Of a stretch of DNA of 64,000 bases, positions 43,187 through 61,051 are shown in pieces. Origin of the DNA: Candidatus Latescibacterota bacterium (GTDB lineage Bacteria; Latescibacterota; UBA2968; GCA-2709665); contig OZ240239.1 of assembly GCA_965198095.1 (NCBI GenBank), positions 118,641-182,640 of the forward strand. Reading direction: 5' to 3'. The notes under the pieces are model-generated. The model did not search any database and was not told the DNA's origin. It saw only the letters and a list, made by a program, of their open reading frames with translations. Position 1 is the stretch's first letter, and each line of letters opens with the position of its first letter. A program made the translations under genes and the position numbers.

Positions 43187-44212
43187 TCAACTCGTGTCGA
43201 TCCGCTCCGCCATCTCCGACATCGTCTGCGCATCCACGGACCGACGGTGCAGGATCGTCTCGAGATTGCCCATATGATCCGAGTGTTCGGGAACCGCCTC
43301 CAGCGCTTCACGAACCTCTTCCCAGGTACATCCGATCTGCCGGGGCTTGTAGCGGGTGCCGCAGGCCTTGAGCATCTCCACGGCCTTCTCGAAGTGCGTC
43401 TCGCAGAGATGACAGGTGATCAGCGTCCCAAGGGCGACGATCTCGCCGTGCAGCGGTTGCTGACCGTGCACCCAGTAAAAGGCGGGGTCCATGGGATGAT
43501 CGATGCTGTGATTCACGTTCTGCTTCATCACCGGGAGGTCCCACCGCTCCCGGCTGATCTCCGCGCAGGTCCGAATGGCCGGGGGTCCGGGCCTTCCCTC
43601 GACGTCCAGATCGGAGGCGTAGCGTTCCACGCGCTCCGATATCCAGGTCTCTATCTCTTCCTGTGCGGCCGTATTCCAAGAATCGCCCGGCAGTCCCTGA
43701 TCCGTCCACCACTTCCAGGCGGCCGCTGCGGCCAGGAAGCAGACGCACTCGCCCATGCCGGCCGCGTTGAGGTAGGGCGGCGCGGCCCAGATCACGTCGG
43801 TGTCCAACAGCACACACTCGGGCACCAGCGTATCTATAATCGCGAGCTTGCCGTCCCGCCGAAGCGGATATGTCAGCTGAAAAATGGCACCGGTCGACAC
43901 GACGGTCGGGATCTGGATGAGCCTGGCCTTCTTCTTCAGGGCGACGTATTTGGCGGCGTCCAGGGCCCTCCCGCCTCCAATTCCGAGGACGTGGGACGTC
44001 TTCGGAAGTTTCTTCACGAGGTCGTTGGAATAGCCTTCCTCCTGGCTGGTCACATATGCCAGGCCCTTGGGCTCGCCCGGCAGCTTTTCCCGAACTGCCT
44101 CCCAGGCCGAGGGCGAGGTCAAAACGACATAACCCTTGAGATCCCGGCATCCGTCCTCGATCACGCGCGTTCCGTAATGGGTAACCCAATCTTTCAATGG
44201 TTTCGTGGCCAT
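43187..44212 (-). CDS. Iron-containing alcohol dehydrogenase / glycerol-1-phosphate dehydrogenase-like (DHQS-like superfamily)
   Basis: 341 aa with GIGGGRALDAAKYVA and IPTVVSTGAIF, followed by a His-rich metal region. Confidence 0.6.
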   Translation of the reverse strand: MATKPLKDWVTHYGTRVIEDGCRDLKGYVVLTSPSAWEAVREKLPGEPKGLAYVTSQEEGYSNDLVKKLPKTSHVLGIGGGRALDAAKYVALKKKARLIQIPTVVSTGAIFQLTYPLRRDGKLAIIDTLVPECVLLDTDVIWAAPPYLNAAGMGECVCFLAAAAAWKWWTDQGLPGDSWNTAAQEEIETWISERVERYASDLDVEGRPGPPAIRTCAEISRERWDLPVMKQNVNHSIDHPMDPAFYWVHGQQPLHGEIVALGTLITCHLCETHFEKAVEMLKACGTRYKPRQIGCTWEEVREALEAVPEHSDHMGNLETILHRRSVDAQTMSEMAERIDTS

Positions 44213-44408
44213 TTATGGCTCCAGTATCGAACGAAATGCGTGATTCCAGACCGGCAGGACAGCCGTAACGGAATGTTAATGCTATAGGATAGCGAATTCG
44301 CACAAAATCTCCAAGCCTTTTCGAGCCTTTGCCGGGGTCCAAACGAGCCGACTTCCGGAATGCCACCGGGAGGATCTGCGACCTTGGGTCCGCACGTTTT
44401 GGCTGACC

Positions 44409-46340
44409 CTACGAAGCACTCACCCACGTCAGAAAGGGTGAGGCGCCGCGATTTCCCCACGCATAGAAAGGGATCGCCGTCACCGGCGCGGCGGTCCCAC
44501 CCTCCCCGCGAAGGACAACGGTCTGGCCCAGGAGGCCTTCCTCCAGGTCGGTTTCGAACCCGGGCAGTTCCCCCACAGGCGCGTAGAGCCCCTCCCCTTG
44601 TCTTGAACGCGCCCCTGTCCCAACACAGATCTCCCACAGGTCGAGACCGGGATTGTCCGCCCCTTCGAAGCAGTAGACGAGGGGCCCCCGCATCAAGGCC
44701 AGTCTGCGTCGCAGGACCTTCACTCGGGGATCCGCCTGTACGCCGACGACCGGCATCGGCAGGTCCAGAATCACGCGGTCTCCCGGGCTCCACTCTCTGT
44801 GGATTCGGCAGTAGGATCCAGGTTCGACCCCACTGACAGCTGTACCGTTGACTTCAACCTTTGGGTTCGAACACCAACCGGGGATGCGCAGGTTCAGATC
44901 GAAGCTCGCGGGTTTCTGGGAAGAAACCTCGAGCTCTACGAGGCCCTCCCACGGATACTGCGTCTTTTGCGAAAGGGCGATCTCCGTACCATCCGGCAGG
45001 TGCCAATCTACGCGGCTGTTGTCGTAGAGGTGGACCCAGAAGCCACTTTCGGACGTGCTATAGATATAGCCGGGAACCGACGCGATCGTACAAAGCACGT
45101 TCGGGGGACAACAGCTGGGCGACAGAGACGCCCAGGTCGTTCTCGGAGGATGATCCCCGAGTGAAGCCAGGGGCACGAGGTAGGAGAAAGTGGTGTGGTC
45201 CAGCGAGACACCCGCCAGGATCCCGTTGTAGAGAATCCGCTCGAAAAGATCGGCATACACCGCCTCACCCGTCACGGCGAGCATCCGCCAGTTCCAGTAG
45301 GCGTTGCCGATCGTCGCGCAGGTCTCCATCCCGGTCGACCCGGTCCAGCCCCATACCCCCTGGGACAGGTCGAAGGCCTCTTCAACTGCCACTTCGGCTT
45401 CCCCGCGTTTGACCGCGATCGATCCAACAATATGCATCTTCCTCTTGGTGACGTCGTTCCAGATCGCGTCCAGCTTGTCCAGGTAGGCCTTATTTCCGGT
45501 TTCCGCGAAGGAGTCCGCGCCGCCGCACATCAGATAGGTCTGGCGAACGAGGTGTGCGGAACGACGGACGCCTACATTCGACCCGATCGCGACGCTCGGA
45601 CCGATTACGGGCGGCTGTCTGAGCAGAGGCGTCAGGAAATGCTCGGCGCCGCGCAGGTAGCGTTCATCGCCGGTCGAACGATACAACTCTACGAGCGCCA
45701 TCTCTATGGCGGGGTGCCCCGCGAACTCCTCGCCTCCGAATTTCGCGCAGACCCGGTCCGCAACGCCCATCGCGCATTCCAGGAATTTATCTTCACCGGT
45801 CGCGCGATGGTGGGCGATGGCCGTCTGGATCAGGTGGCCCGGAGTTGCGAGCCCATACGAGAGCTCGAAATTCTCGCCATAATAGATGTTGAAAAAATCT
45901 TCATTCTGATGTGCCGCGACGAAACCGGCCGCAAGGTCGTTGACCAGACCGCGGATCTCATCATCCTCACCCGACTGAAGCACGAACGCGCACGCTTCCA
46001 GCCACTTCGTCGCGTTCGCGCGCCATGTGTAGGACAGTCCGAGTTTGTTCTGGCCTCTATAGTTCTTGTCCAGAATCTCGAGGGCGGCCCCAATTTCCGG
46101 ACCGTCCGTAGACTGGGAGAATGTCCGGAACGGGCTGATCTGATCGTCCCTGTCGAGCCAGGAGAGGAAGGCCGGAATGCCCGCCCTGCGGCTGGCCTCC
46201 ATTCGCGGCCGCCAGAATCCCGCCTCCATCGTAACGGCCTGAATCGGGACCGGTCTTAGAATGGCGTGGGGGCTCTGAACGGTGGAAACGACGCCCGCCT
46301 CGTTCCAAGCCGGGAGGGTCTTACCTTCCTTGGTACTCAC
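44409..46340 (-). CDS. Glycoside hydrolase family 127 (beta-L-arabinofuranosidase-like, DUF1680)
   Basis: 643 aa with METCATIG (Glu-x-Cys) and SPSCCPPNV (Cys-Cys), matching the GH127 Zn and nucleophile motifs. Confidence 0.8.
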   Translation of the reverse strand: MSTKEGKTLPAWNEAGVVSTVQSPHAILRPVPIQAVTMEAGFWRPRMEASRRAGIPAFLSWLDRDDQISPFRTFSQSTDGPEIGAALEILDKNYRGQNKLGLSYTWRANATKWLEACAFVLQSGEDDEIRGLVNDLAAGFVAAHQNEDFFNIYYGENFELSYGLATPGHLIQTAIAHHRATGEDKFLECAMGVADRVCAKFGGEEFAGHPAIEMALVELYRSTGDERYLRGAEHFLTPLLRQPPVIGPSVAIGSNVGVRRSAHLVRQTYLMCGGADSFAETGNKAYLDKLDAIWNDVTKRKMHIVGSIAVKRGEAEVAVEEAFDLSQGVWGWTGSTGMETCATIGNAYWNWRMLAVTGEAVYADLFERILYNGILAGVSLDHTTFSYLVPLASLGDHPPRTTWASLSPSCCPPNVLCTIASVPGYIYSTSESGFWVHLYDNSRVDWHLPDGTEIALSQKTQYPWEGLVELEVSSQKPASFDLNLRIPGWCSNPKVEVNGTAVSGVEPGSYCRIHREWSPGDRVILDLPMPVVGVQADPRVKVLRRRLALMRGPLVYCFEGADNPGLDLWEICVGTGARSRQGEGLYAPVGELPGFETDLEEGLLGQTVVLRGEGGTAAPVTAIPFYAWGNRGASPFLTWVSAS

Positions 46341-46358
46341 TGGGTGACCTCCCCGACG

Positions 46359-47240
46359 TTATACCGGCATTGTGCGTTTGGTGTGGGCCCGCCCGATCTT
46401 GGCAGGCACTTCTCCCGCAGGCCCACAGGAGCCGATCATCAGGCCCTCGTCGATCATTTCAACCACGGTGTCCGGGAATACAAGATCGAGGAAAAAGACG
46501 TGCGCCTCCTGAAGGGCCGCCTTCACACGCTGGCGGGCCTGCGAGACCGCTTCGGGATAAGGAGGGTCGTGAGCGTCGGGATAACCGAACGACATCGCCA
46601 TGTCGCCGGCGCCCCACTCCCCACAGATGATGCCAGGCACCTTCGCAATCGACTCTGCGTTTTCCAGGGCACGTCTGTTTTCGATCTTGATTCCGAGCAT
46701 GATCTCGCCCACGGGATTCAGCGGCCAGACATCGGCCCGCTTCAAGTATTCCTGGACAGGAAGGCCCCACACTTCCGACGCGGATGCCTGCCCCTTATGA
46801 CCCCTGCGACCGGGATCCAGACCCTGTCCTACACCGAGCTGCTGGAAGGAGTAACGGCAGGATTCGACGAAGGCCTTGACGGCCTCCGGCGTTTCGGCAT
46901 GGGGCAGCGCGACGCCGTGGACCCCCTGCGCGAGGACCTGTTTGATCATCCAGGCGTTCGCCCGGACCACGGCTTCGCTCGTGCCGTCCGTCGGAATGGT
47001 CACGGACACGGCCGGCGTCCGGTGCCCGCTCCGGGTCGGACCGCCATCCACCAGGCCACGCATGAACTCGCCGATGGCGTGGACATCGAACGGATCGTGT
47101 TCCGTCTCGATCCTGATGTAGTCGGCCCACGTACCGGCCATCTCCCGGCCGGCTTCGTAAGAAACCTCCTGTGGATCGATATAGTAAATCGGCTGCCCCT
47201 GCTCGAGCAGTTCGATCGCCCTGTTGATCCGTTTCGGCAT
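46359..47240 (-). CDS. HpcH/HpaI aldolase / citrate-lyase-beta family
   Basis: 293 aa with DYIRIETEHDPFD and the (beta/alpha)8 aldolase pattern. Confidence 0.65.
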   Translation of the reverse strand: MPKRINRAIELLEQGQPIYYIDPQEVSYEAGREMAGTWADYIRIETEHDPFDVHAIGEFMRGLVDGGPTRSGHRTPAVSVTIPTDGTSEAVVRANAWMIKQVLAQGVHGVALPHAETPEAVKAFVESCRYSFQQLGVGQGLDPGRRGHKGQASASEVWGLPVQEYLKRADVWPLNPVGEIMLGIKIENRRALENAESIAKVPGIICGEWGAGDMAMSFGYPDAHDPPYPEAVSQARQRVKAALQEAHVFFLDLVFPDTVVEMIDEGLMIGSCGPAGEVPAKIGRAHTKRTMPV

Positions 47241-47265: not shown

Positions 47266-48330
47266 TTACACAATGCGCCACCGCGTGCCCATCAGGCAGG
47301 TCTTCTCGTCCAGTTGGTCCTTCTGGTAGTAGACTGTCCAGATCGATTCATCAGCCAACTGAACCGAGGCCGGGTAGCCCAGGTCTGCGTCGTGCGATGC
47401 GCAGACGAGCCCTTCGTTTCCGGCCTCCCAGCTCCTCCCCTCGTCCTTGCTGATACAGGCATACTCTCCGTACGGTGGCCTCCGCTTCCCGTAAACGACA
47501 AGCAGCCATCCGTTGTGCAATCGAATCAAGTGGGGAGGATAACCCCAGATCGAAGTCGGCGCCGCCACTGTCCAGGTCGCCCCGCCGTCCTCACTCAGCG
47601 ACTGCCGCAGAAAGTGCTGCGCTCGGTCTTGGGGTACGTAGCGAAACATCGCGACGAGGCGCCCGTCTTCCGTCTCGACGGCGTGGGGTTCGTGGTAGTG
47701 ATCGATCGATTCATCGGGAGGGATCTCGATCCGACCCAGAAGCACCCAGGAACGGCCGTCGTCCTCCGACTGCTCTACCAGGAGCGCCTCCTCGTCGTGA
47801 AAGATCGTCCTGCCCACGTAGAGGAGCCGTCCGTCACTCAATTCAATTGGACCGTGAGGCGCGCTCTCCTGCGTTCGAACCGGCGCCTCCCAGGTCTTTC
47901 CTCCGTCCCCCGACCGCCGCACCCAGTGCCCCAGCCAGTCACGCCTGTCTTCCTGTGTAAGCGAATCAATAGTCGCCTGCCACCGGTCTGCCGTCTCGTC
48001 GCCGTACTGCTCCCGGTATCTCAGCATCCGCGCTTCCGAAGCGACGCCGGTAAACCAGCTCACCACGATCGCGCCAGATCGAGTCACAATGATCCCCGCA
48101 TCCCGATCATCCACGGGCGTGTCGTTGATCGTCTCCGGGGTACTCCAGTTCGCGCCGCTGTCGGAGGACCGCACGAGCTGCGTCTTGCCGTAGGGACAGA
48201 CGTGTGAATCGCGGTCTCCTGAAAAGGCGACAAGCAATTCTTCTTGTGCCGTCTTCGCGATCGTCGGCCAACCGATGTAGCGACCGGGTTGTTTGCAGAT
48301 CACCTGCGTTGACAATACTTCGATTTCCAC
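47266..48330 (-). CDS. BNR/Asp-box repeat protein (sialidase-like, GH33-type beta-propeller)
   Basis: 354 aa with five Asp-boxes: SSDSGANWS, SGDGGKTWE, SEDDGRSWV, SEDGGATWT and SKDEGRSWE. Confidence 0.8.
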   Translation of the reverse strand: MEIEVLSTQVICKQPGRYIGWPTIAKTAQEELLVAFSGDRDSHVCPYGKTQLVRSSDSGANWSTPETINDTPVDDRDAGIIVTRSGAIVVSWFTGVASEARMLRYREQYGDETADRWQATIDSLTQEDRRDWLGHWVRRSGDGGKTWEAPVRTQESAPHGPIELSDGRLLYVGRTIFHDEEALLVEQSEDDGRSWVLLGRIEIPPDESIDHYHEPHAVETEDGRLVAMFRYVPQDRAQHFLRQSLSEDGGATWTVAAPTSIWGYPPHLIRLHNGWLLVVYGKRRPPYGEYACISKDEGRSWEAGNEGLVCASHDADLGYPASVQLADESIWTVYYQKDQLDEKTCLMGTRWRIV

Positions 48331-48367: not shown

Positions 48368-49474
48368 CTACCCGACGCGATGTTCTTCCAGCAATTCGTA
48401 GTTCGGTTCCATCCCCAGGCCGGGCCGATCCGGCACGGTCACATACCCATCCTTGTCCAGGACGAGCGGATCCTTGAAGATGCGGCCGCGCAACGGGTCT
48501 ACCGTTTCGCGATAGAACTCCAGAATCAGACCGTTCGAAATCGCCGCAACGAGGTGGATGTGGACCTCCTGCGCACCGTGCGGGGCGATGCGCAGATCGT
48601 GGGCGGCCGCCAGGGCGGCGACCTGCATGAACTCGGTCACGCCTCCGAGGATCTGGGCATCCGCGTTGAAGATCGCGGCGCTGTCGTGGTCGATCAGGTC
48701 GCGGAATCCATAGCGCGTGTACTCATTCTCGCCCGTGGCAATCGGAATCACCGTCGCCTGCGCAACCTGCGCGTGTCCGCGGTAGTCATCCGGCGCCACA
48801 GGCTCCTCGAACCAGAACGGATCGTAGGGCTCCATCTTGCGGGCCATGTCGATCGCCTCGTAGGCCGCGTAGGCGTTGTTGGCATCCACGAGCAGCTTGA
48901 TGTTGGGCCCGATCGTCTCCCTCACGACACGTACCCGCTCCACGTCCTCGGGGATCGACACGCCGCCCACCTTCATCTTCACCGCTTTCGCCCCCAGGTC
49001 CAGATTTTCCTCCATTTCCCGGGCCAGTTCCTTCAACCCTTTGCCCCCTTCGTAGTAGCCGCCCGCGATATAGGTCGGGATGCGGTCCGTGTAGCCGCCG
49101 AGCAGCTTGTGCACGGATTTGCCCAGAATCTTGCCCATCAGGTCCCACAACGCGATGTCGATCCCACTGATCACCTGCGTCGACATTCCGCGGCGGCCCA
49201 CGATCTTGGGTGTCCACATCCGCTCCCAGATGCGCCGATAGGCGAACGGATCCTCGCCGATCAGGGCCTGCTTGAAATGGTCGACCAGGGCGCTTGTCAC
49301 CTCGCCCGGACGACCCGCCGCGGTGCCCCCGCCCCATCCGATCCCGGTAATGCCCTCGTCCGTCGCGATTCGGATCAGGTTCAGACCGACCGTCGTGTAC
49401 GTATACTTCCCGTTCCGAATCGGTCGGGGGCGCGGCCAGGCGTAGCGCTGCACGGTCACATCGGTAATCTTCAT
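48368..49474 (-). CDS. Enolase-superfamily enzyme, mandelate-racemase subgroup (acid-sugar dehydratase-like)
   Basis: 368 aa with VKMKVGG, LLVDANNAY, FWFEEP, IATGENE and IAPHG. Confidence 0.8.
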   Translation of the reverse strand: MKITDVTVQRYAWPRPRPIRNGKYTYTTVGLNLIRIATDEGITGIGWGGGTAAGRPGEVTSALVDHFKQALIGEDPFAYRRIWERMWTPKIVGRRGMSTQVISGIDIALWDLMGKILGKSVHKLLGGYTDRIPTYIAGGYYEGGKGLKELAREMEENLDLGAKAVKMKVGGVSIPEDVERVRVVRETIGPNIKLLVDANNAYAAYEAIDMARKMEPYDPFWFEEPVAPDDYRGHAQVAQATVIPIATGENEYTRYGFRDLIDHDSAAIFNADAQILGGVTEFMQVAALAAAHDLRIAPHGAQEVHIHLVAAISNGLILEFYRETVDPLRGRIFKDPLVLDKDGYVTVPDRPGLGMEPNYELLEEHRVG

Positions 49475-49626: not shown

Positions 49627-50547
49627 TTACGCCACGTCACCCAAGATCTGCGCGACGACATCCAGACCCACGAGCTCGCTCCACGCCTGCTGCAGCCTGC
49701 CGCACGCCGGTCCCGGCTTTCCGTTACCGATCGCCATGTTGTTGATCCGCGTCACCGGCCTGAGGCAGAATGGGGTCGAGCTCTCAAAGGCCTCGTCCGC
49801 GTTGCAGACGTCGAACACCTGGAAGTCTCTTTCCACGAACGGAATCTCGAGTCTGTCTGCCAACTCGATCACGGTCTGCCGGCTGATCCCCGGAAGGGCG
49901 TTGCGCAGCGTCGGGGAAACGATCGTTCCCTCCTGAACGATCAGCAGGTTCCCGCCGCTGAACTCGGCCACGTTCCCATCCAGGTCCAGCATCAGCACTG
50001 CTGCCTTCGGGTCGACCATCCTCGCCTCTTTCTCCGCCAGCCAGTAATGCATTCGGCTTCGATATTTCATCTTGGGGTCGATACACTGCGGTGGCACGTG
50101 ACGGGTGGACGGCGTTACCGCGTGCACGCCGTCCCGCACCCCCTCGGTCCAGAAGTGCAGGGGCAGAGCGAAGGTGTGAACACAGACCGTCGGTGCCATC
50201 TCCTGCGTCCCGGCGGAGGTGCCGGCGTAGACCGAAAACGATCCGGCCGTGACGAAGTGGATCACGCCCAGCTCCTTTTCCTTCGGAAGCAGCGCGGCGT
50301 TGTGGTCGATCACCTTCATGGTGATGTCGATCATCTCCTTCGGGCTGATCTCTGTCTGGAAACGGGCGTAGTTCATCGACCGGTAGAGCCGGTCCACGTG
50401 CTCGCCGAGCTTGAACGGCTTCTGGTTGAACGTCCGGGTCATCTCGGTGACCGTTGCGCCCAGCACGACACCGGCGTCGTAGACCGGCAACGCAGCCTCC
50501 GCGTAGGGTATGAATTTTCCCTTCAGGTAGGCGATGGGCTCTTTCAC
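49627..50547 (-). CDS. Class IV (branched-chain / D-amino-acid) aminotransferase
   Basis: 306 aa with LDLDGNVAEFSGGNLLIVQEGTIVSPTLRNALPGISRQTVIELA, typical of fold-type IV enzymes. Confidence 0.8.
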   Translation of the reverse strand: MKEPIAYLKGKFIPYAEAALPVYDAGVVLGATVTEMTRTFNQKPFKLGEHVDRLYRSMNYARFQTEISPKEMIDITMKVIDHNAALLPKEKELGVIHFVTAGSFSVYAGTSAGTQEMAPTVCVHTFALPLHFWTEGVRDGVHAVTPSTRHVPPQCIDPKMKYRSRMHYWLAEKEARMVDPKAAVLMLDLDGNVAEFSGGNLLIVQEGTIVSPTLRNALPGISRQTVIELADRLEIPFVERDFQVFDVCNADEAFESSTPFCLRPVTRINNMAIGNGKPGPACGRLQQAWSELVGLDVVAQILGDVA

Positions 50548-50782: not shown

Positions 50783-51553
50783 TTATCTTACGCAGCCCGG
50801 AAAGCACCGCCCCTTGACCCGAAAGTATTCAGGCCCGGGGCCTTCTCGCGTGTAGCGAGATTGGGCGCTCATGTAGGACAGGGCGCTGGCGCGGCGCCAC
50901 CGGTCGGAGCGGTTGGGCGACGTATAGTGGGGCAGCAACGAGTGAAAGAAGAGGCCCGCACCCGCAGGAATGGGGACAACCCTCAACTCGCCGAGTTCGG
51001 CCTGGATTTCATCGTCGATGACGAAATCGTCCGTCACCTGATGATGCGGGAGCGGACCCCGCTTGTGCCCTCCAGGAAGGACCTGCATACACCCGTTTTC
51101 TTCGTCGGTATCGTCAAAGGCGAACCAGCAAGAAACCAGGGCCATCGGTTCGATCGGCCAGTAGGGAGAATCCTGGTGAAACCCTTTGGCCGATCCCACG
51201 CCCGGCGGCTTGGCCAGCAGCGAATTTCGAAACATCTTGATATCAGGTCCCAAGATGCCCTCGACCTTGGAGACGATGGCGGGGTGGGTGCCAAGGCTGC
51301 GAAAGCGGTCATCCCCTTCCACGAGCCCGTCGACCTTCCGAATCCCGTCCCCCGGATGGTCGACGCCGATCTCGCCGCGGGCCACCCTGGGCTCTGTTTG
51401 GAAACGCACGTCGCCCCGGTCCCGGCCTCCGTGCGTGTACGCGCGGAACCGCTCCAGCAAACCTTCGATTTGTTCTCGAGGGAGCAGATGCTCGACAACG
51501 AAGAACCCGTCACGGTCATACGCCACGCGCTCTTTCTGTGTGAGACCCTGCAT
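50783..51553 (-). CDS. Phytanoyl-CoA dioxygenase (PhyH) family oxygenase
   Basis: Trimmed to MQGLTQKERVAYDRDGFFVVEHLL, with AAGGAG 7 nt upstream. FHQD, VLPGGHK and HSLLPHYT. Confidence 0.75.
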   Translation of the reverse strand: MQGLTQKERVAYDRDGFFVVEHLLPREQIEGLLERFRAYTHGGRDRGDVRFQTEPRVARGEIGVDHPGDGIRKVDGLVEGDDRFRSLGTHPAIVSKVEGILGPDIKMFRNSLLAKPPGVGSAKGFHQDSPYWPIEPMALVSCWFAFDDTDEENGCMQVLPGGHKRGPLPHHQVTDDFVIDDEIQAELGELRVVPIPAGAGLFFHSLLPHYTSPNRSDRWRRASALSYMSAQSRYTREGPGPEYFRVKGRCFPGCVR

Positions 51554-51584
51554 TTTCACTCCTTGTATATCGCCAGTCAGAATC

Positions 51585-51606
51585 CACCGGCAGCAAGCTG
51601 CCGGTG
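51585..51606. repeat. Perfect hairpin CACCGGCAGC-AA-GCTGCCGGTG (third copy)
   Basis: Identical core to 36352-36373, followed by CCACAC. Lies 32 nt upstream of the PhyH start at 51553. Confidence 0.7.
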
Positions 51607-51667
51607 CCACACCACACAACATCGATTACGAGACTATATCACCCGCGCCACGGGCACGCTCGAGGCT

Positions 51668-53194: not shown

Positions 53195-53237
53195 ACGTCG
53201 CTCCTTTCGCCCCTTGACTCGAAACCCGAAACTGATG

Positions 53238-54773
53238 CTATCCGAACTGTTGCGGAATAATCCCCCCCGTGGCATCGGGCACGACGGAGAGCCAGCGTGC
53301 ATCGTAAAGGGCGCCCTCGGCATCGAAGACCCGTCCGTCGGGAAGCATGTACTGGTTCGGCGTCGTCGGCTTCTGTCCGGATTGGAATTCCGACGACCGG
53401 GCCCTGTCCGCGGCCATCTGCTGGTGGACCCGCTCCCAGCTGAATCCCTCGAAAAGGGCCTCGCGCATCTTCCGACATCGGGTGGCTTGATGGGGGCTTT
53501 CGGCCAGGTTCGTCTCCTCGTCCGGGTCGTTCACCATATCGAACAGCAGCCGGTCTCCCTTCTCGATATCCACGTACTTCCAGTCCCGGCTCCTCACGAC
53601 ACGCATGGCAGCCGCCGCTTCCTGCTTCGCCGTCTGTTTGTAGTTGATCCTCACGCCATAGTGACAATAGCCCGCGGTCACGTACTCCCGGGGCGCTTCC
53701 GCATCCTCAGGGTCCGCCAGCAGGCCGCTGAAGTCCTTTCCGTCCAGCCCTTCCGGAATCGGAAGACCGGCCAGACCGCAGGTCGTCGGATACAGGTCGA
53801 TGAGCGAAATCGGGTGCGGAACCGGGTGATGTCCTTCCCGTATTCCGGGGCCGCGGATCAGAAGCGGGACCCCGATCGAAGGATCGTAGTAGTTGCCCTT
53901 ACCCCAGAGACCGTGCAGGCCGGCCATCTCTCCGTGATCACTCGTGTAGATGACGACCGTATTCTCCAGCAGGCCGGCATCGCCCACACCCTTCAGGAGT
54001 TCGCCGATGCAGTCATCCGCGAAATCCACGCAGGCGTAGTAGCCTTCCCGTCCGCGCCGGGTTTCCTCAGGCGTAAACTCACGCCAGAGACGTCGCGCGA
54101 AAGGCTCCAGCTTCTCCGCAAAGCCGGAGGGCGGATCGATCGGCGGCAGTCGGTCTCGGTAATACCGGATGTAGCGACCCGGGGCCGTAAAGGGACTGTG
54201 AGGCCGGGAATAGGAGGCACACACGAACCAGGGCGTCTCCGGCTCGCGGCTCTGGTGCTCGAGCAAGAGGGCGATTGTCTCCCTCGTGACGACCACGTCC
54301 TGCAGAAGACTCTCGGGGATCTCGGTGATCCCCCCGCTTGTGGCCGAATGATACGAGGGAAACAGGTCGATCGGCTCGGGCTGATGGCTCAAGCCGTGCC
54401 GAAGATCGCCGTAGGGCCGGACCTGGAATCCCTGCATCTGGTCTCGACCGCCGAAGTGCATCTTGCCGACCAGGCCGGTGCGATACCCGTGCGCCGCGAA
54501 GTGGGCCGGCCAGGTTACGTGCTCGGGAAAAATGATCCAATGGTTGCTCCACGCCGCGCATCGGAAATCATCTTTGCCCGTGAGCAGGCACATCCTCGAG
54601 GGGGTGCAGACCGGCGACGCGCAGAAGGCGTTGTCGAACTGGACCGACCGGCCGGCCAGGTCGTCCAGATGCTGCGTGCGGACGTGCTCATCTCCCGAAA
54701 ACCCGGCTACCTTGGGCGCGTGTTCGTCGGTGAGGATAAGGAGAATGTTCGGTTTGTTTGAGTTTCCGCTCAT
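53238..54773 (-). CDS. Sulfatase (Cys-type, formylglycine-dependent), no signal peptide
   Basis: MSGNSNKPNILLILTDEH...CASPVCTPSRMCLLTGK... plus the downstream GKMHFG and TSDHGE motifs. Confidence 0.9.
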   Translation of the reverse strand: MSGNSNKPNILLILTDEHAPKVAGFSGDEHVRTQHLDDLAGRSVQFDNAFCASPVCTPSRMCLLTGKDDFRCAAWSNHWIIFPEHVTWPAHFAAHGYRTGLVGKMHFGGRDQMQGFQVRPYGDLRHGLSHQPEPIDLFPSYHSATSGGITEIPESLLQDVVVTRETIALLLEHQSREPETPWFVCASYSRPHSPFTAPGRYIRYYRDRLPPIDPPSGFAEKLEPFARRLWREFTPEETRRGREGYYACVDFADDCIGELLKGVGDAGLLENTVVIYTSDHGEMAGLHGLWGKGNYYDPSIGVPLLIRGPGIREGHHPVPHPISLIDLYPTTCGLAGLPIPEGLDGKDFSGLLADPEDAEAPREYVTAGYCHYGVRINYKQTAKQEAAAAMRVVRSRDWKYVDIEKGDRLLFDMVNDPDEETNLAESPHQATRCRKMREALFEGFSWERVHQQMAADRARSSEFQSGQKPTTPNQYMLPDGRVFDAEGALYDARWLSVVPDATGGIIPQQFG

Positions 54774-55214: not shown

Positions 55215-55949
55215 CTATTTCTTCACTGAAAGGTCGATCATCCTGAACGCATAATCGGCCGGATATCGTGTAATATGGGTTCCCGGATCTTCGTAGTCCA
55301 GGCCTCCGCCGCGAATGACCACCTTGTAAGCGGTGTGCTCCGGACGTGTCGTGTCGCCGATTCTGAAGGTGGTCGTGTTTTCGTAGAGCCCGCTTATGAA
55401 ACTGCCTGGCACGTTGCACCCAGCCGTCATGTTGTAGAAGATGTTCTGAATTCGTTGGATGTGGTTTCGCGCCTCTTCAACCGTCTCGAAATCCGGGATC
55501 GCCTGAGTCAGCGCACTCTGGACAAAGGCATTGTGCTGCCCTTGCAGGTTGCCCACCCGCTGGCGCTTGATCAACTGCCCGGCGTGGGTCCGTCTCACCG
55601 TTTTGAGGCTTTCGCCCGGCCCCCACCAGTCCACCGTGTTGTAGTTGCTTCCAGAGCAGCCCGATCCGACGATCATAACCGAAACGATCGGTTTTTCTTC
55701 CTCAATCGTGATAGACCCGACCTCTCCCTCGATTTCCATCCCTTTGTGGTTGTATTCCAGCCAGTTTTCCACCTTCACATTCCTGTAATGAAACGGAAAC
55801 GTGTAGACGTGATGTTCCGTCTCGAACACTTCCACCTCCTGCAAGTCACCCATCTTGTCCGCGTCAGCTTCCGAGGAATAGCGGGCCAGGTTCTCTGAGA
55901 CCAGCGTGTAGTTGGGACTCCCATCTTCTCTTTCGTTCACCCAGTTCAT
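55215..55949 (-). CDS. Hypothetical protein with no family recognised
   Basis: Trimmed to MNWVNEREDGSPNY, with GAGGAG 8 nt upstream. 244 aa of non-repetitive, non-shadow composition. Visibly less GC-rich than the neighbours. Confidence 0.6.
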   Translation of the reverse strand: MNWVNEREDGSPNYTLVSENLARYSSEADADKMGDLQEVEVFETEHHVYTFPFHYRNVKVENWLEYNHKGMEIEGEVGSITIEEEKPIVSVMIVGSGCSGSNYNTVDWWGPGESLKTVRRTHAGQLIKRQRVGNLQGQHNAFVQSALTQAIPDFETVEEARNHIQRIQNIFYNMTAGCNVPGSFISGLYENTTTFRIGDTTRPEHTAYKVVIRGGGLDYEDPGTHITRYPADYAFRMIDLSVKK

Positions 55950-56094
55950 GCTGTCGCTCCTCTGTCTTCGGGTTGGAACAACGACCGAGTCTTTCTCGAA
56001 TGGTTCTCGTAAGATAGTATTGATGCTTCGAGGCGGGCCAAAAGTCAATCAGAATCCGAATTGATGGCACACTTTGGGTGACGATTCCACCGAT

Positions 56095-56985
56095 TCAACT
56101 CAGACACGCCTCGAGATATTCACGAGCCCGGTTGACCTCCACCGCCACCTCTGCTATGGGTTCCCGAATCGGAATCCCACGCGGCGCAGGATGCATGAAC
56201 ACCTCGGTCCAGCCCGCATATTCGATCTCCTTCAAGGCCGAAACAATCGGAGCGAAATCGAGCGGCCCACGGCCCGGCATCTGCAGCAAGATCTCCTCCG
56301 GCTTCAGCGCCCCGTGACTCCCTTTCCCGTGCTGCCAGGCATAGAAGAGAAACAGCTTGTCGTCGAGGTCGCGGATGAGCTGAGCGACCCGCTCAGGATC
56401 GTCCGGCAGATGATAGGGTGCGAGGGCAATGCCCAGGGGTCTCGACCCGGCGAACTCGGCCAGCCACCGCATCGAGTCGAGCGAGTCGACGATCCAGCTG
56501 GCGTGGTTCTCGATCCCGATCCGGACGCCGAGCGCCTCTGCCAGGTCCAACTGAGGCTGCTGGCGCGCCACAAACTGCTTTACGGCGCGCCTTAAGTCTT
56601 CGCCCTCCAGGTCGGCCGGTCCCCCGCTTCCGCAGACGACAAGCTCGGCATCGAATGCCCTCAAGAAACGGATCTCGTCGTCAAGACCGAAAGGGCCCAG
56701 GTCAAACCGGGTAGAGACGCCCAGCTTGACGCCGTGCGTTTCCAGCATCTCCAAAAATGCATCGTGGCCCATGGCTTCGGCCTGCTCCCGCTGGTTCCCG
56801 TGTACGCGAGGCCAAATGTCCAGATGTTTCGCCCCGACCTTTGGAACCTCGGGAAGGACCCGCGCGAGAGGGGTCGTGCCGTACAGCGAGGACGCGAGCA
56901 GATACCGGAATTGGAAGGGCGGGTCACAACCCATCTTTTTTCCCGTCGAATCGCCGGCGGTGAGGGTCAAACAGAAGGGCGGCAC
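56095..56985 (-). CDS. Sugar-phosphate isomerase/epimerase (xylose-isomerase-like TIM barrel)
   Basis: HLDIW...GVKLGV...IGIENH...EVFMHP pattern. The track start at 56985 is GTG. ATG at 56934 (MGCDPPFQFRYLLASS) is an alternative start. Confidence 0.7.
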   Translation of the reverse strand: MPPFCLTLTAGDSTGKKMGCDPPFQFRYLLASSLYGTTPLARVLPEVPKVGAKHLDIWPRVHGNQREQAEAMGHDAFLEMLETHGVKLGVSTRFDLGPFGLDDEIRFLRAFDAELVVCGSGGPADLEGEDLRRAVKQFVARQQPQLDLAEALGVRIGIENHASWIVDSLDSMRWLAEFAGSRPLGIALAPYHLPDDPERVAQLIRDLDDKLFLFYAWQHGKGSHGALKPEEILLQMPGRGPLDFAPIVSALKEIEYAGWTEVFMHPAPRGIPIREPIAEVAVEVNRAREYLEACLS

Positions 56986-57036: not shown

Positions 57037-57747
57037 TCAACCGGGCGCCGCCGGATATTCGCCGCACAGATAGCGGGTTCTTGCGACGTCCTCGTCCAGC
57101 TCGGGAAACCGGGTCATCGGTTCAAGAAAAAAATTGTCTGCCAGGTCATCGCAGACGCTGCTGACTTCCCCGCTCACGGTGTATTGCACGCCATCGACTT
57201 CGAGGCCGGTGCCCTCTTCGCCCCAGAACTGGTGAATGGTCCGCGCAGGAAGGCAGACGCTTCGGCCGGGCTCCAGGCAGACCCGGTCTCCCGGATTCAA
57301 CGCAACCGTCTGACCGTCTACCTGCAACGTAAAGGGTTCGTCCGATCGCTTCCCGTCGTCCGTCGCCTTGCAGACCTCCACGAGGATATTGCCGCCGCTC
57401 CGGTTGATGATATCCTCCCGCTTCGAAAGGTGGAAATGTGCCGGGGCGCGCTGGTTTTCAGGGTCCAGAATGAGTTTTTCCGCATAGGTCTTCGGATAGT
57501 TCGCGTTCTTGGCCGACCCGTTCCGGAGCGTCAGCAGCGTCCGACCGATTTCCTTGAACCGCCCGCTTCCGAAATCGGTCACGTCCCAGCCCAACATGCA
57601 GTCGCGAATCTCGTCGGCTTCGGGACCCTTCTTCTGCCAGTCCTCCACGTTCCAGAACGCGAACGGCGGCAGATGAAACCCGAAGTGTTGGAAGACCTGT
57701 ATCGCGGTCTCGACAGATCGCTCTATTTCAGACCGCTTTAATAGCAT
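57037..57747 (-). CDS. D-lyxose/D-mannose isomerase-like cupin
   Basis: 236 aa with KTYAEKLILDPENQRAPAHFHLSKREDIINRSGGNILVEV, the D-lyxose ketol-isomerase signature. Confidence 0.7.
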   Translation of the reverse strand: MLLKRSEIERSVETAIQVFQHFGFHLPPFAFWNVEDWQKKGPEADEIRDCMLGWDVTDFGSGRFKEIGRTLLTLRNGSAKNANYPKTYAEKLILDPENQRAPAHFHLSKREDIINRSGGNILVEVCKATDDGKRSDEPFTLQVDGQTVALNPGDRVCLEPGRSVCLPARTIHQFWGEEGTGLEVDGVQYTVSGEVSSVCDDLADNFFLEPMTRFPELDEDVARTRYLCGEYPAAPG

Positions 57748-57764
57748 TCTCTACCTCCATCGCT

Positions 57765-59270
57765 CTAGCTTTCTTTCGTCTCTCGCCTTTTAACGATCTC
57801 CGACCACGGAACGCCCTTTTCGATGTCCCTGATTTCCCGGGAGAAGGCCTCGTGGTGATAACCCGGCACGGAGGCGAACCTCACCCCTTCGGGCAGCGCT
57901 CCGTGCAGCAGCGGCGGACAAGACCGGTAGCGCAAGAGGTCCATCAGCAGGGCCTCCCGAATCTCCCGGTAGTCGGGGTCGTGCCACCTGTTGTAAATCT
58001 CTCCCGGATCCGTCCGGTGGTCGTAGATCTCGCTCTCGTCCCCTGTCAAATCGAAGGTGATGCGGAAGTCTTCTGTCCGCATCGACATGTGGTGATAGTC
58101 CTTCACGTGTTCGCATAGGACCGCCCGTTTGTTCCACTCCTCCTTGCCCAGAATCGCTGGGACGAGGCTCCGTCCCTGAACCGTGTTCGGCGTCTCAAGG
58201 CCGAGCAGTTCAGTTAGCGTCGGATAGAGATCCACAGACTCCACGAACTTGCCGAACTCCTCTCCCGAAGGCAGCCCACTCGGGTAGCGAATAATCAGGG
58301 GAACCTTGTGAACGCATTCGTAAAACCCGAGGTTCTTCCAGATCAGTCCGTGCTCACCCGCGAAGTCTCCGTGGTCGGAGGCGTAGATGACGATCGTATC
58401 TTCCAGGATGCCCTGGGCCTCCAGCTCCGCAAGCATCCTTCCGATCTGCTCATCGATCAGGGTGACGAGCGCGTAGTAGTAAGCGATACACTGTCTCAGG
58501 TGCGCGTCGTCCCTCGGCCGGTAGGGGTACCAGAGTTCGCCACGCATCGACTGCTGTTGCCGCTCTGACTTGCCCTCAAACGGGTCTTCGGCATTCGCAG
58601 GGACCGTTACCTCATCCGGATCGTAGAGGCGGTCATACGGCTCGGGCACGGTGAGCGGATCGTGAGGCCGTTCGAAACAGACGTAGGCGAAGAACGGCTT
58701 GCCTTTGTCTCGCTCGCGGAGGTATTTCACTGCCTCGTCTCCGCACCAGACCTCCATCGAGTGTTCCAGTGGCAAGGGCGACGTGACCGCGCAGTCGGGG
58801 TGCTGCTTCCATTTGCTCGTATTGTCGTAATCGTCCGCCACCCCTGCGTCAACCAGGCTTCGGAAGTAGTCGCACGTGAGCGGGTCGTCCGGCAGCGCAT
58901 CGGTGTTCGTGCTGAAACAGGTAGTGTCGAACTCTCGTCGGGGCCAGTGCACCCCGATATGTCCCTTTCCGATGAGCGCCGTCTCGTATCCGGCCTGCCT
59001 CAGGGTCGCCGTGATCGGATTCAGGTGGTCTGGCGGCTCATCGATGTTGCCGTGACGCCGATGCCAGTGTTCGTAGATCCCGGTCAGGTAAGAGATGCGC
59101 GATGGGCCGCAGTGCGCGCTGTTGGCGTAGGCCCTGGCGAATCGAATGCCCTCCCGCGCGAGCCGGTCCATGTGGGGCGTCTGGAGCAGAGGCTCGCCCG
59201 CGCAGGACATACAGCGCGCATTATGCTGGTCGCTCAGTACAAAGAGGATGTTGGGCTGTCCGGAAGCCAT
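57765..59270 (-). CDS. Sulfatase (Cys-type), no signal peptide
   Basis: MASGQPNILFVLSDQH...NSAHCGPSRISYLTG...GKGHIG...ASDHGD. Confidence 0.9.
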   Translation of the reverse strand: MASGQPNILFVLSDQHNARCMSCAGEPLLQTPHMDRLAREGIRFARAYANSAHCGPSRISYLTGIYEHWHRRHGNIDEPPDHLNPITATLRQAGYETALIGKGHIGVHWPRREFDTTCFSTNTDALPDDPLTCDYFRSLVDAGVADDYDNTSKWKQHPDCAVTSPLPLEHSMEVWCGDEAVKYLRERDKGKPFFAYVCFERPHDPLTVPEPYDRLYDPDEVTVPANAEDPFEGKSERQQQSMRGELWYPYRPRDDAHLRQCIAYYYALVTLIDEQIGRMLAELEAQGILEDTIVIYASDHGDFAGEHGLIWKNLGFYECVHKVPLIIRYPSGLPSGEEFGKFVESVDLYPTLTELLGLETPNTVQGRSLVPAILGKEEWNKRAVLCEHVKDYHHMSMRTEDFRITFDLTGDESEIYDHRTDPGEIYNRWHDPDYREIREALLMDLLRYRSCPPLLHGALPEGVRFASVPGYHHEAFSREIRDIEKGVPWSEIVKRRETKES

Positions 59271-59355
59271 GTTCGATAAAATCTCGCAGATGACACGGAG
59301 AGACGACCGATTCCATTACTAAGGAATCAGGTTTCACTGTCAAGCAGTAATTCGA

Positions 59356-59805
59356 TCATCGCTCGACTTGGACCCTCCTTGACGTGCCTTTTCTCGGAGT
59401 GACACGGACGACGCCCCGGTCCGCATCCACCACCACCCGATCCCCCGTCGCGATGGTCGAAAACGGGTCACGCTCCAGGTCCGTCATCATCGGGATGCCG
59501 TTCACGATGCACCCGAGGGCGGCCAGGCTGTCGACCTCCACGTTCACGAACGCCACCGGGGCATTTCCTTCCAGCCGGGCCAGGTTCAGCGTCATCGGCG
59601 TCCCGGAAGATCCCTTGGTCGAGCGGATCACGAGCACCCGATCCCTCAGTGATTCACCCTCCAGCGGATGTCCGGAGCCGATCACTTTCCCGGTAATCGC
59701 ATCCACCTCGCCCCAGAAAGAGAGCGTGGCGTCCGCCACCAGCGCCGTCCCCTCGGCCCTTCCCATCACCACCCCTCTGCCCTTGATTTCGATCGTCTCA
59801 GCCAT
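59356..59805 (-). CDS. Aconitase X swivel-domain subunit (DUF126)
   Basis: GRAEGTALVADATLSFWGEVDAITGKVIG..HPLEGESLRDRVLVIRSTKGSSG...APVAFVN. ATG 59805 overlaps the large-subunit stop by 8 nt (ATGGCTGA). Confidence 0.8.
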   Translation of the reverse strand: MAETIEIKGRGVVMGRAEGTALVADATLSFWGEVDAITGKVIGSGHPLEGESLRDRVLVIRSTKGSSGTPMTLNLARLEGNAPVAFVNVEVDSLAALGCIVNGIPMMTDLERDPFSTIATGDRVVVDADRGVVRVTPRKGTSRRVQVER

Positions 59806-61051
59806 CTCCCATCCACTTCCCGGCAACGGCCGCCCGAATGCACGGTTCGGTCTCCGCGATAATCATTTCTGCCCCCAGCATCCCCCGGGCATAATGCGCC
59901 TGTTTGAACCCGTGGGTTACGATGCGCTTGGCCGGGATCCGCATGTTCGTTGGGCAAGTGTCGCACAGGATCCGGCCGCCCGCAGCCTCGATCGCCTCCG
60001 TGTATCCCATCGCGTCCGCGTTCCCCTTGGTTCCCCGGGCCGTATCCACCCAGAGCCTCACCCCCTGGGCGATCTTTTTCCCCCTCAGTAGGCCAGCAAT
60101 CTCAGAAATTTCCTGGATAGACGCGTGAGGACAGCCAAGGATCACGGCGTCGATTTCGTCTCCGGTGTGGGTCCGAAGCGATTCATAGGTCTCCCTCAAG
60201 GCGGCATCGTCAAACACCGTCTCGGGCTCGGGCACATCGCCCTGAAACGCGGCCTCCAGTGTGGGAGCCTCGGGCGTCACGCCCGCGATGTGACACATCG
60301 TCACGCCCCCTGACGTCGCGAGCGCGGCGCACAGCTGCTTCGCCTCATCCTGTGACGGGCGTTCCACGCCGTTGAACACCGGAATACCCAAACCAGCCAA
60401 CTTTCCCGAATAGTAACCGAGCGCCCCCCAGTCCGTCGGGCTGTCCAGGTCTGCGGTCACGTCGATCCGCAGCGTCCCCTTCCGGTTCTCGTCCAGTAGG
60501 ACACCGAACTCGGGTACCAGTCCTAGAAGCGACGCCGCGATCGCGCTCTCCGTCCCGTGCCGCACGGTTCTCGCCCCCAGGATCGAGTTGGCGTAGACCA
60601 CCGCTGAAGACTCGGTCCAGGCGCAGACCTCCCCCTTCAGCGGAACGTTTCCGACGAGATACGGCGCGCACGTGAACGTCGGGATGAATCCGGCCTCAGC
60701 CGCCATGTCTGCCAGTTCCTTCTGCATCCGCACCTGCTCCGGATCGTTTTCAGGCACATCCTGATGGCCCTCCAGTGTGACGAAAGCGGCGTGGACTGTG
60801 CAGGTGCATCCCGGGTGCGTCTGGTGCGCGCAGGCCTCCTTCAGATCTTCCATATACCGGTCGAGTGTTTCCCGGGAAGCCCCTCTGGCCATCAGGTTGG
60901 GAACCGGCAGCAGCGCGTGCGTGTTCTCCACGCGCACCAGCCGCTGCGCACCCATCGCCTCGCCCCACGCGACCAGCCAGCGCATGCACTTGGCCAGGTA
61001 GTCGCCCTTGGCGCCGTCCAGAATGGCCTGCTGTTCTTCAGTAAGATCCAT
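59798..61051 (-). CDS. Aconitase X catalytic subunit (DUF521); the family includes cis-3-hydroxy-L-proline dehydratase
   Basis: 417 aa with N-terminus LTEEQQAILDGAKGDYLAKCMRWLVAWGEAMGA..LV.V...H and conserved Cys positions. Paired with the DUF126 gene. Confidence 0.7.
   Translation of the reverse strand: MDLTEEQQAILDGAKGDYLAKCMRWLVAWGEAMGAQRLVRVENTHALLPVPNLMARGASRETLDRYMEDLKEACAHQTHPGCTCTVHAAFVTLEGHQDVPENDPEQVRMQKELADMAAEAGFIPTFTCAPYLVGNVPLKGEVCAWTESSAVVYANSILGARTVRHGTESAIAASLLGLVPEFGVLLDENRKGTLRIDVTADLDSPTDWGALGYYSGKLAGLGIPVFNGVERPSQDEAKQLCAALATSGGVTMCHIAGVTPEAPTLEAAFQGDVPEPETVFDDAALRETYESLRTHTGDEIDAVILGCPHASIQEISEIAGLLRGKKIAQGVRLWVDTARGTKGNADAMGYTEAIEAAGGRILCDTCPTNMRIPAKRIVTHGFKQAHYARGMLGAEMIIAETEPCIRAAVAGKWMGDG

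Follow-up and report, generated by a model that had tools for sequence, protein, structure and literature searches.

A Latescibacterota gene region that may process small sulfated or acidic saccharides in the cytoplasm, and its AcnX pair of an uncharacterised subclass

The stretch of DNA analyzed here (the window: 64,000 nucleotides (nt) of contig OZ240239.1, 118,641-182,640) comes from Candidatus Latescibacterota, a phylum for which we know of no cultured representative. The part in question, window positions 43187-61051, encodes a glycosidase of family GH127, two sulfatases and a two-subunit protein of the AcnX family among sugar-converting enzymes. We consider this range to be part of a large lineage-specific catabolic island, whose cytoplasmic modules complete the degradation of small saccharides that are sulfated and/or acidic, and we give this reading a probability of about 0.55. 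A preliminary description of the region had proposed the catabolism of hydroxyproline-rich, arabinosylated glycoproteins; the dense island of glycoside and sulfate-ester catabolism stands, while the hydroxyproline-rich glycoprotein (HRGP) has lost the support which AcnX seemed to lend it. Degradation of HRGPs based on GH127 had already been proposed in the in-silico reconstruction of Latescibacteria (WS3) by Youssef et al. 2015 (PMC4454575). That work concerns the same phylum and connects GH127 with extensin/HRGP, sulfatases with sulfated algal polysaccharides and M19 with dipeptides; it contains neither AcnX nor hydroxyproline catabolism, whereas here the link to hydroxyproline was tested and rejected.

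Pfam scans of 44 window open reading frames (ORFs) found every family named in the preliminary description in its place: GH127, the HpcH aldolase, the BNR propeller, the enolase-superfamily dehydratase, the class IV aminotransferase, two sulfatases, the lyxose-isomerase cupin, the two-subunit AcnX, a GH36-like pair and the M19 dipeptidase with an MLE-type enzyme (Table 1). To these can be added a PhyH dioxygenase (50783-51622) and a xylose-isomerase-like TIM barrel (56095-56985) from the range, as well as proteins without Pfam hit at 51668-53323, 55215-56048 and 61192-62712. All Pfam-scanned genes of the range are on the minus strand, as are nearly all genes of the window, which has a G+C content of about 61%; Rfam and tRNA scans of the window gave no matches. 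No signal peptide was found in any enzyme of the range, including the longest possible ORFs of the sulfatases, GH127, BNR and propeller proteins, which indicates that these enzymes act on already imported molecules and have no direct access to a wall glycoprotein. In the sulfatases, GH127 and the BNR protein even the longest ORF opens straight into the catalytic domain. Signal peptides were seen, judging from N-terminal sequences, only in the products of 24842-31422, a TonB-dependent-receptor-like protein and two secreted ones.

Saccharides would probably be imported through this upstream-encoded TonB-dependent system. The two cytoplasmic formylglycine sulfatases would strip sulfate esters, after which exo-acting GH127, the sialidase-like propeller, three to four GH32/43/130-like propellers and the GH36-like and GHL10-like proteins would release monosaccharides, and the lyxose/mannose-isomerase cupin and the xylose-isomerase-like TIM barrel would interconvert the sugars. 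An oxidoreductase and the enolase-superfamily dehydratase or cycloisomerase would then lead to a 2-keto-3-deoxy acid, which the adjacently encoded HpcH aldolase would split, in a non-phosphorylative manner, into pyruvate and an aldehyde. What was observed are the gene content, intact catalytic motifs, enzymes without signal peptides, the residues of AcnX and the gene neighborhoods, and from these we infer in which order the steps run, on which substrates, and that the TonB system is connected with them. The genes do not single out one polymer: a carrageenan-like substrate, ulosonic acids and sulfated deoxy-sugars each account for some of the genes as well as HRGP does, while each of them falls short on other members that it would need.

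The claim which most directly concerned hydroxyproline was that AcnX belongs to the family that includes cis-3-hydroxy-L-proline (C3LHyp) dehydratase. Within this family Type-I and Type-IIa are the sole C3LHyp dehydratases and Type-IIb is the archaeal mevalonate-5-phosphate dehydratase (PMC8184944, PMC5144071); residues binding C3LHyp are completely conserved in Type-I and Type-IIa (PMC8184944). Types IIc to IIf miss the landmark residues of both characterised kinds and are uncharacterised (Watanabe et al. 2021, PMC8184944), and our literature search found no characterisation of them. The window proteins were aligned with AtAcnX, TkAcnX and 24 sequences taken from genome loci, and eleven sequences in the alignment are of the C3LHyp type (five fused Type-I, six split). 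All eleven have H-I-Asp203, Asn233, Thr or Ser at position 72 and S-(C/S)-(T/S) in the small domain, none has Cys449, and ten of them have E-S-Asn294 (the one from locus L078 has Ser). The Fe-S ligands expected of this type are Cys273 and Cys508, to which Cys510 may be added. The window AcnX has Pro at Asp203, Gly at Thr72, His at Asn233 and Ser at Asn294, and its H45-G57 loop is without any acidic residue. Together with its orthologues it shows H-(ALLP)-V-Pro, His at 233, E-S-Ser, S73-S74-Gly75 and a cysteine at 449 (GCPHAS) with none at 510, so its Fe-S ligands follow the pattern of TkAcnX and not that of the C3LHyp type.

The residues needed for catalysis are present. The large subunit (AcnX-L) keeps C128, E147-S148, C307, C366, K383 and Y387 and the small one (AcnX-S) keeps W38 and the catalytic S73; S73, E147, S148, K383 and Y387 are invariant among orthologues. 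The chemistry, abstraction of the alpha-proton and elimination of the beta-hydroxyl on an Fe-S cluster, is probably kept, while the ligands for the proline nitrogen are, according to the alignment, gone and the enzyme is not of the C3LHyp type. AcnX-L matches TkAcnX best (PDB 7cnr, 211 bits, 36% identity), compared with 159-164 bits and 29% identity for AtAcnX. With TkAcnX (TK1249/TK1248) the window pair shares two separate subunits, three cysteine ligands (in TFTC, GCPHAS and DxC, with which C128, C307 and C366 align), E-S-S after Trp, the catalytic Ser of the small subunit, Lys and Tyr. The residues that mark Type-IIb are the phosphate-binding ones (the Gly48-Val49-Ser50 backbone, Asn53 and Asn79) and Leu27(S)/Val64(S). 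The phosphate ligands are not kept, as A47-G48-V49-S50 is replaced by P-N-L-M and Asn79 by His; Trp38 stands for Leu27(S), Gly75 is found at the small-subunit site and the H45 loop has a four-residue insertion. The window host is, moreover, bacterial, and no mevalonate-pathway Pfam family is present in the window. AtAcnX has the same fold, and the equivalents of its Ser70, Glu292, Ser293, Lys530, Tyr534, Cys273, Cys508 and Trp35 are kept in the window, but in addition to the four replaced residues and the position of the third cysteine the gene order is different, large before small (the two overlap by 29 nt) where the C3LHyp type has small before large or a fusion. The window AcnX is most likely a [4Fe-4S]-type alpha,beta-dehydratase whose substrate is a 3-hydroxy acid lacking a ring nitrogen, and not C3LHyp. 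It is possible, although we regard this as tentative and with odds well below even, that the pair represents a third AcnX specificity, for a 3-hydroxy acid with neither ring nitrogen nor phosphate, e.g. a sugar acid or a product of PhyH hydroxylation. If this is true, the locus provides a genomic way into a still unknown step by which sulfated organic matter is turned over.

Gene neighborhoods agree with the residues. The Pfam families Pro_racemase, DAO, Ldh_2, OCD and DHDPS, i.e. those of hydroxyproline epimerase, D-hydroxyproline dehydrogenase, pyrroline-2-carboxylate reductase and pyrroline-4-hydroxy-2-carboxylate deaminase, are all missing from the window, and the comparison with hydroxyproline (Lhp-type) catabolic clusters gave the same result beside AcnX orthologues in the examined loci of Latescibacterota, Gemmatimonadota, Acidobacteriota and Planctomycetota. 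Only the sister genome (Candidatus Latescibacterota metagenome-assembled genome (MAG) chromosome OZ252100.1, AcnX-L 90% identical) departs from this in part, with a DHDPS gene that is accompanied by another BNR gene and by genes for a PALP enzyme and a putative sulfate exporter. As a positive control, the landmark-bearing Type-I AcnX of Pelagibacterium luteolum (L081) is clustered with SBP_bac_3 of an amino-acid ABC transporter, DAO, Pro_racemase and Ldh_2, as is canonical for hydroxyproline catabolism.

Across Latescibacterota, Acidobacteriota, Planctomycetota and Gemmatimonadota, AcnX-L orthologues with 59-92% identity occur, and the sole invariable partner of AcnX-L is the small subunit. 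A linkage with sulfatases, PhyH oxygenases and GH-like families of unknown kind is seen in Latescibacterota and Gemmatimonadota. Recurrent neighbors are PhyH dioxygenases directly upstream and, immediately after AcnX-S in L011, L016 and L033, an orthologue (75%) of sulfatase 2; further ones are other sulfatases, GHL10-like and GH4 proteins, a PL6-like lyase, a class III aminotransferase, and GH29 with glycyl-radical enzymes. The glycyl-radical enzymes, found beside one orthologue, were considered as hydroxyproline dehydratases and set aside, since the context of a GH29 fucosidase fits propanediol/fucose metabolism equally well or better. GH127 and AcnX are found together only in two close relatives (90-92% AcnX identity), one of which, L001 (92%), has the same gene order. 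GH127 is absent from about 45 other orthologue loci, each with 10 kb flanks, but this is weak evidence because such flanks are shorter than the distance of about 13.5 kb between GH127 and AcnX in the window. Beyond these relatives, one GH127 gene was found near an AcnX orthologue, and at 29% identity it is a different GH127.

Paralogous AcnX pairs were also observed. In Acidobacteriota (L044-L047, L054) a pair about 47% identical to the window AcnX is directly preceded by homologues (51-53%) of the D-2-hydroxyacid dehydrogenase encoded at 4193-5212 of the window, an adjacency which may mean that AcnX of this clade yields 2-oxo acids. The sister genome (L043) has a second AcnX pair, 47% identical and about 110 kb from the AcnX orthologue, which adjoins homologues of the window TonB-dependent receptor (43%) and of its two secreted neighbors (34% and 52%).

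GH127 is the other gene on which the HRGP proposal had been built. All three of its domains (catalytic, middle and C-terminal) are above the Pfam cut-off, and its acid/base Glu (VEEAF), ETC (Glu-x-Cys) and CCPPN align with 4qjy, 5mqo and 6ex6. The roles of these residues, a Zn-binding Glu-x-Cys and a Cys-Cys pair serving as nucleophile and Zn ligand, are those that we take from the literature on HypBA1, with which the Zn-Cys-Glu catalytic motifs are shared; judged by these motifs GH127 is probably active. Among solved members it scores 279 bits with 4qjy, 269 with 5mqo and 251 with 6ex6, and lowest, 183 bits, with HypBA1 (3wkw/3wre); these scores of 183-279 bits do not separate specificities. 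Its best NCBIfam model is aceric-acid hydrolase (348 bits, cut-off 950). Orthologues at 53-55% identity adjoin GH67, ABC permeases, ThuA and GFO/ADH oxidoreductases, and one at 50% adjoins unrelated genes. Besides aceric-acid hydrolase, the family holds 3,6-anhydro-D-galactosidases (PMC5698469).

Both sulfatases have an intact CxPxR maturation motif, and neither has the export signal that is typical of polysaccharide sulfatases, since even in the longest possible ORFs no more than five to seven residues precede the domain (it starts at residues 6-8, in sulfatase 2 at residue 6). The best PDB matches of sulfatase 1 are choline sulfatases (173-182 bits; NCBIfam chol_sulfatase 255 bits, cut-off 433), while that of sulfatase 2 is the GlcNAc-6-sulfatase 5g2v (199 bits). 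Three PhyH dioxygenases are encoded in the window (15596-16783, 35358-36335 and the one in the range). Near AcnX orthologues such genes are present in Latescibacterota, and up to five of them lie within 20 kb in marine contigs labelled Gemmatimonadota; loci with PhyH include L002-L005, L088, L090 and L091, some of them near GH127 orthologues.

Several observations weigh against the processing of saccharides as the function of this region. None of the 20 proteins compared with NCBIfam equivalog models reached the cut-off, so that all functions are assigned only at the family level, and the range itself showed neither a kinase nor a sugar transporter or regulator. AcnX may have no connection with glycans, as an identity of 70-92% across phyla is more than one would expect of an enzyme in peripheral catabolism. 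Orthologues with 62-81% identity in Bryobacteraceae (L017) and Pirellulaceae (L034) are surrounded by unrelated or housekeeping genes (Lhr helicase, DnaB, sigma-70); in the former the pair is found between Lhr and DnaB, in the latter next to a flavoenzyme of the old yellow enzyme (OYE) type. The class IV aminotransferase, PhyH, M19 and serine-hydroxymethyltransferase-like (SHMT-like) genes are a hint of amino-compound chemistry that lies outside the favored model, and choline-sulfatase-like cytoplasmic sulfatases could act on small organosulfates instead of sugars.

The alternative that survives best is that AcnX, PhyH and the choline-sulfatase-like enzyme act on small non-carbohydrates, for instance organosulfates or amino or quaternary-amine compounds that have been hydroxylated, and are mere neighbors of the glycosidases. 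The closeness of sulfatase 1 to choline sulfatases, the recurrence of PhyH and sulfatases next to AcnX, an Aminotran_3 gene that follows AcnX in L007 and the housekeeping surroundings of AcnX in some phyla all speak for it, and hydroxylation by PhyH with subsequent dehydration by AcnX would be chemically sensible. We nevertheless regard it as improbable. The window AcnX is flanked by glycosidase-like propellers and sugar isomerases, neither a transporter nor a regulator that would fit such compounds was identified, and the literature searched holds no characterised precedent; a search for PhyH with sulfatase and polysaccharide likewise found nothing relevant.

The saccharide reading itself leaves room for particular sugars. 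A route for ulosonic or nonulosonic acids (2-keto-3-deoxynonulosonic acid (Kdn), 2-keto-3-deoxyoctulosonic acid (Kdo) or sialic-acid-like ones, perhaps in sulfated or O-acetylated form) would have the BNR protein release the acid, the class II aldolase turn it into pyruvate and an aldose such as mannose, and the lyxose/mannose isomerase convert the aldose to a ketose. It is in accordance with the adjacency of the BNR_2 and HpcH genes (26 nt apart), with the best NCBIfam model of the cupin, D-lyxose/D-mannose isomerase (LyManIsom, 222 bits, cut-off 350), and with the sister genome, which adds a second BNR_2, DHDPS (the family of NanA-type aldolases) and a GDSL esterase to the block. However, the BNR protein has no significant similarity to characterised sialidases, and its only significant PDB match, Dfer_1899 (5hx0), is itself of unknown function; the aldolase has diverged strongly, and the argument is of the same family-level kind as that of the preliminary description, which makes this route quite unlikely.

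More remote still is a red-algal galactan route, in which the sulfatases would desulfate, GH127 would be an exo-3,6-anhydro-D-galactosidase, the enolase-superfamily enzyme would form 2-keto-3-deoxygalactonate and HpcH would cleave it without phosphorylation. The top two PDB matches of the enolase-superfamily protein are anhydrogalactonate cycloisomerases (DauB, for 3,6-anhydro-D-galactonate, 5olc, 205 bits; that for 3,6-anhydro-L-galactonate, 5xd7, 195 bits), but unrelated acid-sugar dehydratases score nearly as high (184-191 bits, talarate/galactarate dehydratase at 184). GH127 is the conserved anhydrogalactosidase of carrageenan polysaccharide utilization loci, clustered with sulfatases and DauB (PMC5698469), and in the window GH127, the enolase-superfamily gene and the aldolase form one tight block. 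The locus of Zobellia galactanivorans has clustered GH127 (dagA), S1 sulfatases (cgs) and DauB, and genes of these families are likewise clustered in the window, with a TonB-dependent receptor encoded elsewhere in the island. On the other hand, the families of dauA (aldehyde dehydrogenase), dauC (PfkB kinase) and dauD (aldolase of the 2-keto-3-deoxy-6-phosphogluconate (KDPG) type) are absent from the window in Pfam scans, with HpcH in place of the last, no GH16, GH82 or GH117 was found, all window enzymes of the comparison are cytoplasmic, and the relatives are uncultured MAGs that need not be marine.

The combination of an enolase-superfamily dehydratase with an HpcH-family aldolase is known from E. 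coli YfaW/YfaU and the non-phosphorylative L-rhamnose, L-fucose and pentonate routes. The window has the two in one block and a pair of a short-chain dehydrogenase/reductase (SDR) and an FAH-family hydrolase elsewhere, but the scores are far under the cut-offs (rhamnonate dehydratase 142 bits, cut-off 393; KDR aldolase 38 bits, cut-off 441; HpaI, at 49 bits, is also far below its own) and no dedicated sugar dehydrogenase or lactonase was identified. The second enolase-superfamily protein of the window, at 2970-4091, scores 249 bits with the NCBIfam muconate-cycloisomerase subfamily (cut-off 335). An identity of 2970-4091 and 48368-49474 as enolase-type C3LHyp dehydratase or hydroxyproline-betaine epimerase was rejected at 117 and 74 bits (cut-off 500).

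HRGP catabolism, with GH127 acting on hydroxyproline-linked arabinosides, the GH36-like proteins on Ser-linked galactose and AcnX on cis-3-hydroxyproline from extensins, arabinogalactan proteins or algal HRGPs, is very unlikely, in spite of an intact GH127, the membership of C3LHyp dehydratases in the AcnX family (PMC5144071), a Trp38 that corresponds to the Trp35 of AtAcnX packing against the pyrrolidine ring, and the in-silico prediction for the phylum: besides the AcnX and GH127 results given above, secreted proteases and GH121-type enzymes were not detected and the catalytic positions of the GH36-like proteins are non-canonical. Among partners of the Bifidobacterium longum HypBA1/HypBA2 system, Pfam showed no GH121-like, no GH43 HypAA-like protein and no arabino-oligosaccharide ABC transporter in the window, where several large proteins are hitless and the coverage of GH121 by Pfam is unverified. 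HypBA1 itself is intracellular, as is predicted for the window GH127. As for the GH36-like pair (83% identical to each other, no signal peptides), a single phmmer pairwise alignment with AgaB (4fnq, 85 bits) places Glu, with moderate confidence, at both catalytic Asp, the nucleophile of the KWD motif and the acid/base (HWECD; TEFMSD). These proteins may not be ordinary alpha-galactosidases, and the proposed role on alpha-galactosyl-Ser found no support. That AcnX means hydroxyproline and GH127 means extensin does not follow from family membership, and checking residues and neighborhoods removes the link.

Table 1. Features of the window, with positions, strand and the basis of each assignment
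Feature	Position	Strand	Basis
M19 dipeptidase + MLE-subgroup enolase-superfamily enzyme	1955..2947 + 2970..4091	-	Pfam Peptidase_M19, MR_MLE
Two tandem GH36-like paralogues, non-canonical catalytic positions	11039..13087 + 13313..15337	-	Pfam Melibiase 93-94 bits
TonB-dependent-receptor-like protein (28315-31422) + two secreted proteins	24842..31422	-	CarboxypepD_reg, weak SusC/RagA match
SDR + FAH-family hydrolase pair	38168..39885	-	Pfam; conserved in sister genome (L091)
REP/BIME-like array with RAYT-type Y1 transposase ORF (41889-42323, -)	41615..43041	.	Repeat families, inverted arms, ORF translation
Fe-ADH_2 / glycerol-1-phosphate-dehydrogenase-like oxidoreductase	43187..44212	-	Pfam Fe-ADH_2 60 bits, partial match
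GH127 glycosidase, predicted cytoplasmic	44409..46340	-	Three Pfam domains PF07944, PF20736, PF20737 (189/94/64 bits)
Divergent HpcH/HpaI-type class II pyruvate aldolase	46359..47240	-	Pfam HpcH_HpaI 56 bits
Sialidase-like six-bladed propeller (BNR_2), no signal peptide	47266..48330	-	Pfam BNR_2 75 bits
Enolase-superfamily acid-sugar dehydratase or cycloisomerase	48368..49474	-	Pfam MR_MLE_N + MR_MLE_C
Class IV (BCAT / D-amino-acid type) aminotransferase	49627..50547	-	Pfam Aminotran_4 126 bits; NCBIfam equivalogs all below cut-off
PhyH-family Fe(II)/2-oxoglutarate dioxygenase	50783..51622	-	Pfam PhyH 127 bits
Propeller-family paralogue	51668..53323	-	31% identical to 61192-62712; fold taken from that paralogue's model
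Cys-type sulfatase 1, 511 aa, choline-sulfatase-like, predicted cytoplasmic	53238..54773	-	Pfam Sulfatase + SGSH_C; CTPSR
Conserved protein of unknown function	55215..56048	-	No Pfam hit; called as 244 aa in relatives
Xylose-isomerase-like TIM barrel (sugar isomerase/epimerase/dehydratase fold)	56095..56985	-	Pfam AP_endonuc_2 55 bits
D-lyxose/D-mannose-isomerase-type cupin	57037..57747	-	Pfam Lyx_isomer 272 bits, full length
Cys-type sulfatase 2, 501 aa, predicted cytoplasmic	57765..59270	-	Pfam Sulfatase + SGSH_C; CGPSR
AcnX small (swivel) subunit	59356..59826	-	Pfam AcnX_swivel_put 87 bits
AcnX large subunit, 417 aa, uncharacterised Type-II subclass	59798..61051	-	Pfam AcnX 408 bits
Five-bladed beta-propeller + beta-sandwich protein (GH32/43/130-like), 506 aa	61192..62712	-	AF2 model pLDDT 85
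Second propeller-family paralogue, cut by window end	62794..64000	-	73% identical to 61192-62712

The locus does not open a long-standing question. What is useful in it are an abundant and highly conserved AcnX subclass, the existence of which was noted in 2021, the cytoplasmic sulfatases, and at least two unclassified glycosidase-like families (the GH32/43/130-like propellers and the GHL10-like barrels), all of them reasonable targets for the discovery of enzymes for the turnover of sulfated glycans or organosulfates. A PDB sequence search with the propeller protein at 61192-62712 gave nothing significant, while its AlphaFold2 (AF2) fold model, built on 31 homologues, matched GH130, GH32 and GH43 enzymes and a GalNAc deacetylase in a Foldseek search against the PDB (E about 1e-9), and two distant homologues (P0262, P0266) pass the Pfam Glyco_hydro_32N cut-off. 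Three to four copies of this family, including the C-terminus of the protein at 21769-24243, are present in the window, and from the model it is probably an unclassified family of glycosidases or phosphorylases. The copy at 62794-63993 was considered as a pseudogene, which is ruled out, as it is the window end that cuts it; it aligns to residues 111-510 of the 510-residue orthologue in L001. The GHL10-like proteins are four paralogues of about 520 residues at 7705-10887 and 17702-21517 with weak Pfam matches (GHL10, 22-32 bits), and seven further Latescibacterota loci have homologues no more than 10 kb from an AcnX orthologue. Their AF2 model, made from the four window paralogues, has a mean confidence (pLDDT) of 56, too poor to classify them.

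Short gaps divide the range into two sub-blocks, one of AcnX-L, AcnX-S, sulfatase 2, the cupin, the TIM barrel and the conserved protein at 55215-56048, and one of the enolase-superfamily, BNR, HpcH and GH127 genes, possibly with the Fe-ADH-like one. Genes from AcnX-S to the TIM barrel are 18-86 nt apart and those from the enolase-superfamily gene to GH127 19-38 nt. The conserved protein has orthologues with 83-99% identity at the same position in L001 and L006, and the Fe-ADH_2-like gene has a 78% orthologue at the same position in the sister genome (L091). Into the same block the sister genome inserts BNR_2, DHDPS, PALP, the putative sulfate exporter (PF03601) and the GDSL esterase.

The GH127 block is separated from a block of cyclase, 3HCDH, FAH, SDR and thiamine-pyrophosphate (TPP) enzyme genes by an array resembling repetitive extragenic palindromes (REP) or bacterial interspersed mosaic elements (BIME), with an ORF of the REP-associated tyrosine transposase (RAYT) type; a Y1_Tnp gene is found at the same spot in the sister genome (L091). 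The tandem unit of about 125 nt is present in five to six copies and has GC-rich inverted arms of 26 nt. The region is a mosaic undergoing reshuffling. On the far side of the array, the block at 36548-41604 (a TPP enzyme, SDR, FAH-family hydrolase, a 3-hydroxyacyl-CoA-dehydrogenase-like protein and a putative cyclase) is conserved, as the sister genome has the same. Its SDR/FAH pair presumably resembles the diketo-hydrolase branch of non-phosphorylative sugar-acid routes.

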